64,000 nucleotides of DNA, taken from sequence record MW250785. One strand, 5' to 3'. How positions within the stretch are numbered: position 1 is the first letter of the stretch; every line of letters starts with the position of its first letter. Both the position numbers and the translations under genes were made by a program. Below the pieces are notes generated by a model. It worked only from the letters and a program-made list of their open reading frames with translations, did no database searches and was not told where the DNA came from. This stretch comes from Escherichia phage UPEC03. Positions 39,922 through 43,468 of this stretch are shown piece after piece.

Positions 39922-40270
39922 AGAAATGTCTGAACTGAAAGTAAAAGCATCCGGCGAATATGTGATCATCGAAGCTACTGCGCGTCCGCAGGGTTCCGAA
40001 ATCAAATCTGAATCTGGTATCGTGGTTGGTGTACGCCAGCACGGGGAACAACCTTTTTATGGTAAAGTTGTTTCTGTAGGCGTAGACGTTCCAGCAGAAG
40101 CGGCAGAACGAATCCTGGGTAAATATATCCCACTGCCAAGCGCTCACATGGCGAATGTTCCTGACCCTGATCTGGTTGCGGGTTACATTTCCGAAAAAGA
40201 AGCAAAAGAGAAGGAAACAAAATACGTTTCCGCACATTACAAAGCAATCCAGGCAATCTACGAGATCTAA
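39914..40270 (+). CDS. 31: co-chaperonin gp31 (GroES-like)
   Basis: GEYVIIEA...ESGIVVG parallels T4 gp31. Confidence 0.8.
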   Translation: MSKEMSELKVKASGEYVIIEATARPQGSEIKSESGIVVGVRQHGEQPFYGKVVSVGVDVPAEAAERILGKYIPLPSAHMANVPDPDLVAGYISEKEAKEKETKYVSAHYKAIQAIYEI

Positions 40271-40272
40271 AA

Positions 40273-40524
40273 ATGGCTAAATCAATTCAAGCAATTATCG
40301 CTGATACCGTCAGCAAATCCAAAAAGCTGTTCGACAAAGGCGAAATTCTGGAAGCCCCGACGCGTATTGACGTAATGACATCAATGATCATTGATGCGCA
40401 TCAGGGTAAACTAAAATCCCGTGCCGATGAAGTCATGGCGTACATCGTCCAGTTCGAAGACGTATGTAAGTACGCGAAAGATGTTGATCCGCTGGTTCGC
40501 GAAATCTATCGCAAACAGTTCTAA
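40273..40524 (+). CDS. hypothetical protein (position and size of T4 rIII)
   Basis: Synteny/size only. Confidence 0.35.
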   Translation: MAKSIQAIIADTVSKSKKLFDKGEILEAPTRIDVMTSMIIDAHQGKLKSRADEVMAYIVQFEDVCKYAKDVDPLVREIYRKQF

Positions 40525-40531
40525 AAATTCC

Positions 40532-40608
40532 GGCCCTTTAGCTTAATTGGTTAGAGCGGGTGACTCATAATCGCGCGGTTGCTGGTTCGAATCCAGCAGG
40601 GGCCACCA
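40532..40608 (+). tRNA. tRNA with CAU anticodon (Met, or Ile if lysidine-modified), encoded CCA
   Basis: Acceptor GGCCCTT/AGGGGCC, T-arm GCTGG-TTCGAAT-CCAGC, anticodon loop CTCATAA; hand-folded. Confidence 0.75.
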
Positions 40609-40613
40609 AATAC

Positions 40614-40689
40614 GCAGGTGTAGTTCAATTGGTAGAATATCTGGTTTCCATCCAGATTGTTGAGGGTTCGAGTCCCTTCACCTGCTCCA
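40614..40689 (+). tRNA. tRNA-Gly (UCC), encoded CCA
   Basis: Acceptor GCAGGTG/CACCTGC, anticodon arm TCTGG-TTTCCAT-CCAGA, T-loop TTCGAGT; hand-folded. Confidence 0.8.
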
Positions 40690-40838
40690 ATTCGGGTGCG
40701 TAGCGCAATGCCGTTAAATGGTTCGGAATATGCAACCTTATCGTATGCGATAGGCTCTGTTGGTATCCGGTAATAGGTTCCCCGGAATGCGGGGTGAAGT
40801 AAAGAAACTTCCAGCCCACAAATTTAAAAGAGAAAAAT

Positions 40839-41258
40839 ATGAAAGGTCTCCAAAAGCTGTTTGAGTTAACCCCAAAAATTCGCGAAATCGTCGCTGCATC
40901 AACTGAAAAAGAAATCAACGGTAAATTGATGAAACTGTTTACCGAAGAAATCACTGATTTCGATAAAGAATATCGTAAAGCGTTCGATGCGTATTCTGTT
41001 GATGGTTTCTTTGCATCACCGCAGGTGAATAGCAAACATGAATATCATCGACGATTCTTTGACTGGTCGATCGTCAATATCGTTCGACGAACTGATATCG
41101 AACCTACGAACCATCAGTTGATCTCTATGGATTCTTCTGTGTTCTTTATCCAGTATCTTATTACTGGTGGATTTAAAGCAGAAGGTATTCCGTTCTACAA
41201 CGAAGCTCTGGAAGAAGAATTCGCAGAAGCGTATAAGTATATCAAAGCAGTTCGTTAA
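40839..41258 (+). CDS. hypothetical protein
   Basis: ORF. Confidence 0.45.
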   Translation: MKGLQKLFELTPKIREIVAASTEKEINGKLMKLFTEEITDFDKEYRKAFDAYSVDGFFASPQVNSKHEYHRRFFDWSIVNIVRRTDIEPTNHQLISMDSSVFFIQYLITGGFKAEGIPFYNEALEEEFAEAYKYIKAVR

Positions 41259-41300
41259 TCAACAGGCTATCTTCGGATAGCCTTTTTTCTGGAGAAGCAC

Positions 41301-41870
41301 ATGCGCTTTTTAAAATACGCAAGCTGGTTTGTACTGGTTCCCCTGGATATTCTGTCCGGTGTTCTGGCTATTCTGCTGGCTCCTTTCGTGGTTCCGTTCT
41401 ACAGTGACGAAACAGGACATTTGCCTAAAGGGTTCCGTTGGATGGAAACATTCGATAACCCGATCGATGGTGATGGTGGACATATCCGGCGTTGGGCTAA
41501 CATCCGGTATCACTTAGGCGCTCTGGGTGTGTATGCGCAGCGTGTAGGCTGGTTGTGGCGTAACAAGGCGTACAACTTCGCTTATAACGTCTTAGGGCGT
41601 GAAGCACAATCAGACTTCGACTGGAAGGGAAACCCGAAAACAGAAGGTGGTTCCGACCCATCACGTCACGGTTATCTGTTGATGTGGAATGATTCGGCAT
41701 GGGGGCTTTATGTCTTCAAACCGTGGCTTAAAGTCGGAAAGGTTCAGTTCTGCTTACGCGTGTATTGCGGGTGGAAACTGAAACAGGAAGTAACTGACCC
41801 TAACGGGCTGGATCGTGCAATGCTGGCGTTCCATATCAACCCGTTACGTTATTATGTCGTAGAAAGGTAA
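41301..41870 (+). CDS. hypothetical membrane protein
   Basis: N-terminal TM helix. Confidence 0.45.
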
Positions 41871-41874
41871 TACA

Positions 41875-42237
41875 ATGAAAGCATATCAGATTTTAGAAGG
41901 TTTACACACTGGTACAATCTACCTGGAAGAAGGTAATGATGTTCGTGTGGTGGTATCCAAAACCCTCGAAATGGATTCAGTGATCGGTAAAGCTCGCGTT
42001 GCTCCATTCGCAAAACGTGAAGTCGATATTGAATTTCAACCCACTGTTAAAGTGGAAGGTGGACAACACTTAAACGTAAACGTGTTGCGCCGTGAAACTC
42101 TGGAAGACGCTGTGAAGCATCCAGAAAAATACCCACAGTTAACGATCCGTGTGTCCGGCTATGCAGTGCGTTTCAATTCACTGACTCCTGAACAACAGCG
42201 CGACGTTATCGCCCGAACCTTTACAGAGAGTCTATAA
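41875..42237 (+). CDS. grcA: autonomous glycyl-radical cofactor (GrcA/YfiD-like)
   Basis: C-terminal ...[61 protein letters not shown] with RVSGY glycyl-radical motif. Confidence 0.85.
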
Positions 42238-42518
42238 TGGCGATTGAAGACGTACAGGGCTATAAGCCCCATTCAAAAGAAAAGATCGACAAAGTAAACC
42301 ACATCAAGGCCGCTGAAATTGCCCTGGGCGAAATCTTCAAAGAACTGGATGAAGAGTATTCAAGCGATTACGCGGTATCAGATACCGATTCATTCACCAC
42401 AGAAGAACTCGATGCGATGCTTGAACGTGTCCATCAAATCCAACTGGCGAAAGACCGACTGAAAGAAGCCTCTATGTGGGCGTGTCGTGCGGTGTTCCAG
42501 CCAGAAGAAAAGTATTAA
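42237..42518 (+). CDS. hypothetical protein
   Basis: ORF, ATGA-type coupling. Confidence 0.4.
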   Translation: MAIEDVQGYKPHSKEKIDKVNHIKAAEIALGEIFKELDEEYSSDYAVSDTDSFTTEELDAMLERVHQIQLAKDRLKEASMWACRAVFQPEEKY

Positions 42519-42526
42519 AATCCAGC

Positions 42527-42553
42527 CGTTGCCGAAAGGTAGCGGCTTTTTTC
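42527..42553 (+). terminator. hairpin CCGTTGCC-GAAA-GGTAGCGG + TTTTTT
   Basis: Seen in sequence. Confidence 0.55.
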
Positions 42554-42643
42554 GTTTTTATGCAAAATAATGCTTGCACTGAATCAGGCTTTCTTGTATC
42601 TTTAACCACGTAGGCAAGACAACTTAACTTTGAGGATGACATT

Positions 42644-42937
42644 ATGAAAACTTACAACATGAAAGAACTGGTTTGCTTCAACACTCGTCGTGAAGCCCGT
42701 GCGTATGTTCTGGCGGCTGGTAAGAATACCTCTGCTGTAATCGACCTGGGTACTGATAAAGCTGTTGGCGCACGTTGGGCTGCTGTTGTGGTTATCGCTG
42801 CTCCTGTGACTCCTGTTAAAACTCTGGTTCTGGGTGCGCGTAAAGCCGAAACTCTGAAAACCAGCACTTGCGGGGCGGGTGGTGTTCATAATGTTACGGT
42901 CATTCGAAAAAGATCTTTTAATCGAGTCGGTGTATGA
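42644..42937 (+). CDS. hypothetical protein
   Basis: ORF. Confidence 0.35.
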   Translation: MKTYNMKELVCFNTRREARAYVLAAGKNTSAVIDLGTDKAVGARWAAVVVIAAPVTPVKTLVLGARKAETLKTSTCGAGGVHNVTVIRKRSFNRVGV

Positions 42938-43027
42938 AGGTATACGGGGAAAACATAAAGAACAATCTCCGAAGAGATTGATGTAATCAATGAATTTCTA
43001 TGTAGACCATACGTTAAGAGAGTTATT

Positions 43028-43468
43028 ATGAATATTGGTAGTGGTGATTCATACCCATCATGCGCATTGAGCAACTTCGCCCCGCATCCGTTTACGTTTG
43101 ACGGGGTAGAATGTGCATCAATGGAGGGCTTTTTACAAAGTCTGAAATTCAGCAATCCAGATATGCAAGCGCATGTGTGTACGCTGGTTGGTAAAGCCGC
43201 CAAGTTCAAAGGCAAGAAAAAGAAATGGTATCGCGATCAGACCCTATACTGGAAGGGTATGCCGATTCACCGTGAATCAGAAGCATATCAAATCCTGATT
43301 GAAAACGCGTACAATGCTCTTTTCCTGAATGACGGGTTCCGCCGTGCGCTGGCTGCAACCGGAAAAAGTACCTTGACTCATTCAATGGGAAAGAATAAGA
43401 TGAATGAAACGGTACTCACTGAACGTGAGTTTGTCCGAAATTTAACCCGATTGAGAGATCTGTTATGA
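43028..43468 (+). CDS. NADAR-domain (YbiA-like) protein
   Basis: CALSNFAPHPFTFDGVECASMEGFLQSLKF resembles the NADAR signature. Confidence 0.6.
   Translation: MNIGSGDSYPSCALSNFAPHPFTFDGVECASMEGFLQSLKFSNPDMQAHVCTLVGKAAKFKGKKKKWYRDQTLYWKGMPIHRESEAYQILIENAYNALFLNDGFRRALAATGKSTLTHSMGKNKMNETVLTEREFVRNLTRLRDLL

Follow-up and report, generated by a model that had tools for sequence, protein, structure and literature searches.

According to Andorfer et al. 2021 (PMC8683613), which cites Wagner et al. 2001, the only validated spare-part proteins are E. coli YfiD, also called GrcA, and bacteriophage T4 Y06I. Both are described there as receiving their radical from the activating enzyme of pyruvate formate-lyase (PFL-AE) and as binding oxygen-cleaved PFL, whose activity is thereby restored. 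On GrcA the radical resides on G102, from which it is transferred to C419 of PflB (PMC12338860). YfiD residues 1–60 lack an ordered structure; without them cleaved PFL (cPFL) is not measurably bound and a fourfold gain in activation is lost, but catalysis does not depend on them (PMC8683613).

The gene described here lies in a 64,000-nucleotide stretch of Escherichia phage UPEC03 (sequence record MW250785), which is called the window below. Comparison with the systems above identifies it, with good confidence, as the ortholog in Pseudotevenvirus of T4 Vs.6/Y06I; its product would be an autonomous glycyl-radical cofactor, or "spare part", carried by the phage. Both the list of open reading frames and direct reading of the sequence give an ATG-to-TAA frame of 120 aa at 41875–42237 on the plus strand, exactly where an initial annotation, made from the letters alone, had placed a GrcA-like protein. 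The gene and its surroundings comprise the following features.

41264..41283, plus strand: terminator-like hairpin and T-run, upstream of the three-gene block (consensus scan)
41301..41870, plus strand: DUF7338 gene (189 aa), upstream of vs.6 with a 4 nt gap (Pfam PF24027, E = 1.1e-64; phrog_2143)
41862..41867, plus strand: putative Shine-Dalgarno-like GAAAGG, 7 nt before the ATG (sequence reading)
41875..42237, plus strand: vs.6 / GrcA-like coding sequence, 120 aa plus TAA (ORF list; ortholog of T4 vs.6, Y06I)
41875..42054, plus strand: N-terminal half, aa 1–60, divergent phage-type GrcA N-terminal region (15/60 identical to E. coli GrcA; hhalign)
42055..42234, plus strand: C-terminal glycyl-radical domain, aa 61–120 (protein identical to E. 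coli GrcA 68–127; Pfam PF01228)
42148..42162, plus strand: RVSGY glycyl-radical fingerprint, residues 92–96 (read from the sequence)
42157–42159, plus strand: G95 (GGC), predicted radical site (aligned with G102 of GrcA and G734 of PFL)
42237..42518, plus strand: vs.4 homolog, downstream (Acb2/Tad1 hairpin family, 93 aa; Pfam PF24729, E = 5.4e-17; vs.4 in the RB16 annotation)
42524..42547, plus strand: terminator-like hairpin (10 bp stem, 6 G-C pairs) and T-run, directly after the vs.4 homolog (consensus scan)

The 120-aa product is a stand-alone protein, with a stop codon upstream, an ATG of its own and unrelated genes on either side. Its stop codon overlaps the ATG of the vs.4 homolog by 1 nt (CTATAATGG, read from the sequence), and the DUF7338, vs.6 and vs.4 (Acb2-family) genes form a tight three-gene block with terminator-like hairpins on both sides, in which the order DUF7338 gene–vs.6 is the same as in RB16, EC-W2 and Roth88. 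No sigma-70-like promoter was found by the consensus scan in 40200–43200, and TATAAATA is absent from the entire window.

At the protein level, alignment with E. coli GrcA (WP_000627804, 127 aa) returned 74/112 identities (BLASTP, E = 3e-52), a match far above chance. The initial annotation had named low identity to host GrcA on alignment as the outcome that would count against it, and identity is not low; its description of a GrcA/YfiD-like stand-alone glycyl-radical protein agrees with the BLASTP result, with the Pfam Gly_radical domain PF01228 on residues 60–101 (66.9 bits where the cut-off is 22.2; E = 2.6e-18) and with the top NCBIfam match, the GrcA equivalog model TIGR04365. It had further described a near-exact match over the C-terminal ~70 residues. 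Residues 61–120 are indeed identical to GrcA 68–127 at 60/60 positions, RVSGY included, and the length of ~70 proved slightly generous, about 64 of the last 70 residues matching GrcA when counted from the BLASTP alignment. The N-terminal residues differ, as had also been said (15/60 identical over the first 60, or ~25%), though they are still homologous. Searches against the PDB (phmmer) gave matches to GrcA (6owr, E = 3.3e-42) and to PFL (1h16/1cm5), whose residues 689–759 align over 71 residues with residues 50–120 of the phage protein (E = 1.7e-26); the radical domain belongs to the PFL type, and the RVSGY at residues 92–96 fits the GrcA fingerprint RVxG[FWY].

The TIGR04365 match (E = 7.5e-46, 155.5 bits) lies under the curated cut-off of 170 because the N-terminal half is divergent, and for this reason we class it with the phage-type GrcA homologs of the Vs.6/Y06I family and not as a bacterial GrcA equivalog. 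When the N-terminal halves of 10 phage proteins were compared as a profile with those of 75 bacterial GrcAs, hhalign returned a probability of 97.3% (E = 2.3e-11) over 59 collinear columns at 25% identity. The N-terminal halves being homologous, the phage protein is homologous to GrcA over its full length, with strong divergence in the N-terminal half (pN ~0.54 vs bacteria); bacterial GrcAs of different orders are 58–78% identical to one another in this half. A chimera of an unrelated phage N-terminus and a host C-terminus was considered and ruled out by the homology and collinearity of the N-termini.

Set beside its nearest described relatives, the phage protein resembles E. coli GrcA/YfiD (P68066; NMR structure 6OWR) in being a small stand-alone protein with an identical C-terminal 60 and a collinear, homologous N-terminal half, but it is 7 residues shorter at the N-terminus, is only ~25% identical in the N-terminal half and is encoded in a phage early-gene block, whereas E. 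coli GrcA sits in an ung-grcA neighbourhood. With the C-terminal radical domain of PflB (~689–759; 1H16, 2PFL) it shares 71 alignable residues and a common core beginning GGQHLNVNV; PflB, however, is a 759-residue chain, and the phage protein is a free-standing 120 aa without the rest. The radical domain is also common to GrcA2 and GrcA3 (NCBIfam NF008341 and NF038360, ~80 aa; E = 8e-27 and 5.5e-31), although here the match extends over residues 59–120 only and stays under the cut-offs of both models, whose profiles have only 78–80 positions and therefore little N-terminal extension.

The closest characterised protein is T4 Vs.6 (NP_049730, GrcA in the RefSeq annotation), with 91/120 identities (76%), no gaps and E = 2e-67. 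The initial annotation had mentioned a comparable T4 gene of probably known function; that gene is vs.6, encoding Y06I, and its spare-part biochemistry is published. Both proteins have 120 aa, belong to phrog_1209 (PHROGs; positions 1–121 matched in full length by residues 1–120, E = 1.1e-59) and have an Acb2-family vs.4 downstream. Their C-terminal halves are identical at 59/60 positions, T4 Vs.6 differing by R73H, and the N-terminal half is identical to that of T4/T2 Vs.6 at 32/60 (counted on the T2 copy, the T4 alignment being the same there). Full-length similarity to T4 vs.6 is thus combined with a T4-type position beside vs.4, the annotated gene order being vs.6-vs.4 in RB16 and vs.6-vs.5-vs.4 in T4. 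The two orthologs differ in the DNA of the 3′ half, which in T4 is ~98% identical to E. coli grcA and apparently host-overwritten, and in the window is 83% identical and evolves vertically.

Within its own lineage the gene is widespread. The window, from an RB16-like Pseudotevenvirus, is collinear with RB16 positions ~9–74 kb at 76–94% nucleotide identity. At the DNA level the gene matches that of Enterobacter phages EC-W2, EC-F1 and phi5 at 100%, is 98.9% identical to RB16 vs.6, and 98.9–99.7% identical to that of many RB16/RB43-type phages (genus Pseudotevenvirus) of Cronobacter, Klebsiella, Citrobacter and Escherichia. In all, 46 phage records with at least 95% nucleotide identity were found, with hosts in Enterobacter, Cronobacter, Klebsiella, Citrobacter and E. 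coli; an assembly artefact or host contamination, also considered, is ruled out by this allele in 46 independent phage records together with 30 DNA differences from E. coli. More distant homologs bring the total to 1590 of 50,697 phage records, among T4-like Straboviridae, T5-like Demerecviridae, a Yersinia jumbo phage and Aeromonas phages. GenBank already labels the identical EC-W2 sequence "autonomous glycyl radical cofactor". What the gene does is thus a supported and already known reading: this is an annotated, conserved phage auxiliary metabolic gene. For the window itself its significance is accordingly low, the T4 ortholog having been characterised in 2001 and the gene being conserved and annotated.

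By analogy with Y06I, to which it is 76% identical, the window's ortholog would in all likelihood be activated by PFL-AE and rescue oxygen-cleaved PFL. In the mechanism that we propose, the protein would be produced during infection, and the host radical-SAM activase PflA (PFL-AE) would abstract hydrogen at G95, within the RVSGY loop. The C-terminal 60-residue domain would then dock into host PFL that oxygen has cut at G734, the radical would pass from the phage protein to Cys419 of PflB, and the conversion of pyruvate and CoA to acetyl-CoA and formate would be restored, supplying fermentative ATP and acetyl-CoA in a microaerobic or anaerobic host that, to judge from general knowledge of T4-type infection, may be unable to resynthesise its own GrcA or PFL. 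The N-terminal half would correspond, as a divergent homolog, to the region of GrcA on which binding of cleaved PFL and efficient activation depend in E. coli YfiD. What the phage gains, we infer, would be that fermentation is kept running despite a damaged host enzyme. No deletion phenotype showing such a gain was found in the searchable literature, and a search for the evolution or phenotype of phage GrcA turned up only biochemical papers.

The C-terminal match is imperfect for one likely host group, 2/60 residues differing from the GrcA of Enterobacter sichuanensis (LMDAVEH), so perfect host matching is not required. A phage-encoded activase was also sought: the "putative radical SAM protein" RB16p156 of RB16, outside the window, weakly matches SPASM/twitch-type maturase models only and is not a PflA/NrdG-type activase. 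The N-terminal half is conserved across T4-like phages and only ~25% identical to bacterial GrcA. There is some small chance, though we think it unlikely, that this phage-specific half confers a role absent from bacterial GrcA; possible roles are to outcompete host GrcA, to load the protein onto undamaged or differently damaged PFL or onto TdcE, or to accept a radical from phage NrdG.

The last of these roles touches on a different partner altogether, as NrdD is also a glycyl-radical enzyme that oxygen can cleave. The protein might serve as a spare part for, or be activated by, the NrdD/NrdG anaerobic ribonucleotide reductase of the phage rather than host PFL and PflA. RB16-type phages encode NrdD and NrdG, and the homolog of Aeromonas phage Ah1 lies between nrdG and nrdC, that of the Yersinia jumbo phage fHe-Yen9-04 within an nrdD...nrdG cluster; occurrence beside nrdD/nrdG in two such distant phages leaves room for another partner, and the clustering suggests a co-regulated anaerobic module. 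In the lineage of the window, however, the two genes are far from vs.6. Following a check proposed in the initial annotation, tblastn with RB16 NrdD and NrdG as queries detected neither within the window, and in the collinear relative RB16 both are present ~100 kb from vs.6, a position that in this lineage falls outside the window. The domain itself also argues for PFL: the 10-residue stretch around the radical site is the same as in GrcA and PFL and unlike the site of RB16 NrdD, RRTCGYLG, and the 71-residue alignment to the PFL C-terminus (E = 1.7e-26) is joined by no NrdD structure among the PDB matches listed. With T4 Y06I validated with PFL and PFL-AE, as described in PMC8683613, an NrdD/NrdG partnership is very improbable. 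We give just as little credence to a decoy or competitor that would mimic the radical domain of GrcA or PFL and titrate PflA or occupy PFL, redirecting or shutting down host fermentation. Such a role would suit a C-terminus that perfectly mimics the host interface and an N-terminal half that is conserved in phages at ~25% identity to bacteria, but the radical glycine and the entire catalytic loop are strictly kept (dN = 0), which a protein that only blocks could do without, and the T4 protein restores PFL activity in vitro, again according to PMC8683613. The gene's neighbours raise one further reading, in which the protein acts with the translationally coupled Acb2/Tad1-family anti-defence sponge (vs.4) in counter-defence and not in metabolism. 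The stop/start overlap and the vs.6-vs.4 order kept in RB16 and EC-W2 speak for it; in T4 and Shfl2, vs.5 stands between vs.6 and vs.4. Against it, no vs.4-annotated gene adjoins the homolog in RB49, Pm5461, T5-like S126, Ah1 or Yen9-04, in T4-type genomes small early genes stand close together even when unrelated, and we know of no defence system that involves PFL; of a counter-defence role we are extremely sceptical.

A remaining alternative concerns the origin of the gene and not its function, namely that transfer or gene conversion recently brought the 3′ half over from the host chromosome, and that this accounts for its identity to host GrcA. Host-like tracts of this kind do occur in other phages: the 3′ half differs from E. 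coli grcA at 1–5 nt of ~185 in T4, T2, Shfl2 and RPN187, ~520 phage records are 95–99.5% identical to E. coli grcA positions 200–384, and T2 has a GC3 of 0.18 over the N-terminal half that jumps to 0.45 over the C-terminal half. The initial annotation had read the near-host identity of the window's protein in the same sense, as recent host-derived sequence, and had proposed a nucleotide alignment with host grcA. For this window that alignment does not support a recent transfer: the 60 identical codons are only 83.3% identical in DNA to grcA in 5426 of 5426 complete E. coli genomes, with 30 synonymous differences, spread evenly along the tract, and 0 non-synonymous ones (pS = 0.67, dS ~1.7, dN 0); dN = 0 with dS ~1.7 in the C-terminal half is also reported against T2. 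None of the sampled bacteria exceeds 84%. Among 81 bacterial grcA genes (that of E. coli and those of 80 species representatives found by a genome scan, with Cronobacter and Klebsiella grcA not included) the closest is that of Morganella (83.9% nucleotide identity, with the lowest pS, 0.60), and the median pS of the phage against the 81 is 0.78, compared with a median of 0.71 for random bacterial pairs. Against an Enterobacteriaceae-like set the minimum pS is 0.67 and the median 0.76, compared with a median of 0.51 within that set and 0.11 between T2 and E. coli. Recorded host groups are among those compared: the grcA of Enterobacter sichuanensis is 79.4% identical in DNA (58/60 aa), that of Citrobacter amalonaticus 81.7% and that of E. 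coli 83.3%. These alignments already contradict a recent transfer from an E. coli, Enterobacter or Citrobacter donor. A metagenome scan with a window-specific 23-mer, a search of low sensitivity, found no bacterial-type grcA with window-type DNA; its 5 matches were 4 full-length PFL genes and 1 bacterial-type grcA, 71.6% identical in the 3′ half.

Divergence within the phage lineage points the same way. When Roth88, a sister phage that infects Klebsiella, is taken for comparison, the C-terminal half has a pS of 0.57 and the N-terminal half one of 0.53, close to the values of the flanking genes (0.55 for the downstream acb2-like gene, 0.71 for the upstream DUF7338 gene), and this match between the C-terminal half and its phage neighbours indicates vertical descent in the phage lineage. 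The N-terminal half is 53/60 identical to that of Roth88 with pN/pS 0.07/0.53, and is therefore under purifying selection within phages. GC3 in the C-terminal half is 0.45, near the 0.495 average of the window's long ORFs, and one allele is found across phages of five host genera. The near-host protein identity that had been taken as a sign of recent origin is thus accompanied by DNA only 83.3% identical, by saturated synonymous sites and by a phage-lineage divergence that matches the neighbours, and recent copying from the host is scarcely probable for this phage. The same 60 residues occur in 13 sampled species of nine genera (Escherichia, Citrobacter, Trabulsiella, Huaxiibacter, Serratia, Edwardsiella, Pectobacterium, Pantoea and Xenorhabdus) with synonymous sites saturated (pS up to ~1), so that the protein identity holds no dating information. 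Protein identity with host GrcA is kept by extreme purifying selection at the interface with host PFL and PFL-AE and does not stem from a recent acquisition. The case carries a caution, in that 100% phage–host protein identity over 60 residues looked recent while synonymous divergence in the DNA was saturated: identity within an ultra-conserved domain cannot date a transfer.

The idea of a recent host origin is right for T4, T2 and related phages, and not for the phage of the window. A blastn search of a phage collection with E. coli grcA returned 520 records at 95% identity or above and 90 records at 90–95%, with nearly all alignments beginning at grcA position 199/200 and a few at 162. Upstream of codons 61–120, nearly every codon of T2, T4, Shigella phage Shfl2 and Mosigvirus RPN187 differs from E. 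coli grcA. The C-terminal half of T2 has a pS of only 0.11 to E. coli, its N-terminal half one of 0.67, and between Tequatrovirus and Mosigvirus pS is 0.04–0.09 in the C-terminal half compared with 0.28 in the N-terminal half. The T-even pattern fits a putative gene conversion, maybe a repeated one, in which host grcA replaced the 3′ half of the phage gene. There may accordingly be two evolutionary modes, one in T-even phages, where the radical half would be repeatedly overwritten by host grcA, and one in Pseudotevenvirus, where the same residues would be held by selection alone. The searchable literature yielded no earlier report of half-gene conversion in T-even phages. For E. coli phages of the T-even type, T4, T2 and hundreds more, this would be a clean natural instance of host-to-lytic-phage gene conversion limited to half a gene, and the wider interest of the family is limited to this host-identical DNA tract of the T-even orthologs, which lies outside the window. 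A similar jump in GC3, from 0.23 to 0.58, is seen in the Klebsiella Jiaodavirus phages KMI13 and 15882-6-2, which carry the variant LLDAVEH that is also present in some Enterobacteriaceae GrcAs.

Within T-even phages infecting E. coli and Shigella, the last ~185 nt of vs.6 share 95–99.5% DNA identity with positions 200–384 of E. coli grcA, and this tract differs from the bacterial gene at four positions in T4 and one in Shfl2. The 5′ half of T-even vs.6 is saturated relative to E. coli grcA (synonymous divergence, pS, of 0.67), and GC3 in the T2 copy jumps from 0.18 to 0.45 between the two halves. A grcA-like 3′ tract is present in ~520 phage records, with a junction at grcA position 162 in a few of them. 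Judged from these sequence comparisons, T-even vs.6 looks like a lytic-phage gene of which one half has been converted by the host chromosome (gene conversion), possibly repeatedly. We found no report of a host-grcA-like 3′ half in T-even vs.6 in the searchable literature. Representative copies, numbered within each extracted locus, are:

L102:5558–5920, minus strand, vs.6 of T4
L083:1501–1863, vs.6 of T2
L099:223–585, vs.6 of Shfl2
L098:261–623, vs.6 of RPN187

Copies from Klebsiella phages, one of them half-length, were located as follows:

L092:1001–1363, vs.6 homolog of Klebsiella phage KMI13
L100:224–586, vs.6 homolog of Klebsiella phage 15882-6-2
L090:1001–1363, vs.6 homolog of Klebsiella phage Roth88
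L089:1462–1698, radical-domain half only, Klebsiella phage vB_Kpn_AM.K1 (UNVERIFIED_ORG, 100 kb record)

The radical domain in KMI13, 15882-6-2, and Roth88 carries an LLDAVEH variant that is also present in some Enterobacteriaceae GrcAs (Phytobacter, UBA7338), and GC3 in Jiaodavirus copies rises from 0.23 in one half to 0.58 in the other. This pattern suggests that the 3′ half may be host-derived or host-tracking. In vB_Kpn_AM.K1, the open frame spans 78 codons without the phage-type N-terminus; either the gene is truncated or this unverified record is misassembled.

The neighborhood of vs.6 in the window includes the following features:

40532–40608, plus strand, tRNA-Met (CAT)
40614–40689, plus strand, tRNA-Gly (TCC)
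41301–41870, plus strand, DUF7338 protein, 189 aa (Pfam E = 1.1e-64, phrog_2143)
42237–42518, plus strand, vs.4 homolog, Acb2/Tad1 hairpin family (Pfam PF24729, E = 5.4e-17)

The DUF7338 gene lies directly upstream of vs.6 with a gap of 4 nt, an order also seen in RB16, EC-W2, and Roth88, and the tRNA pair lies ~1.2 kb upstream, as in RB16. Downstream, the ATG of the vs.4 homolog shares 1 nt with the vs.6 stop codon. Members of the Acb2/Tad1 hairpin family are anti-CBASS/Thoeris sponges. In Roth88, the label “anti-CBASS protein acb2” is attached to another gene, two genes upstream of vs.6, whose positional counterpart in the window may be 40839–41258.

In two distant phages, the vs.6 homolog sits within or adjoining an nrdD-nrdG cluster, which encodes the anaerobic ribonucleotide reductase and its activase, an arrangement that suggests an “anaerobic module”:

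L087:1501–1884, vs.6 homolog of Aeromonas phage Ah1
L088:1495–1857, vs.6 homolog of Yersinia phage fHe-Yen9-04

In RB16-type phages, vs.6 and nrdD/nrdG are ~100 kb apart. These phages also encode, outside the window, a radical SAM protein:

L096:16404–17558, RB16p156, 384 aa

Its C-terminus is SPASM/twitch-like, it matches maturase families only weakly, and it does not belong to the PflA/NrdG type of activase.

The T4 late-promoter consensus TATAAATA has no match in the whole window (1–64000; ~2 expected by chance), even though the collinear RB16 region includes baseplate genes; the genus may use late promoters that depart from those of T4.

Public annotation of vs.6 homologs is inconsistent across records: the T2 copy (AP018813.1) is labelled “tail sheath monomer”, copies in several T5-like records “ribonucleotide reductase subunit”, “2-ketobutyrate formate-lyase”, or “acetyltransferase”, and many Pseudotevenvirus copies “hypothetical protein”. 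Among bacterial records, contig NZ_JBQPOM010000029.1 (L078), labelled Vagococcus sp. WN89Y, bears a grcA of the Enterobacteriaceae type, whose product is identical to E. coli GrcA at 58/67 N-terminal positions. Vagococcus is a Gram-positive genus, and the contig probably reflects assembly contamination or mislabelling.
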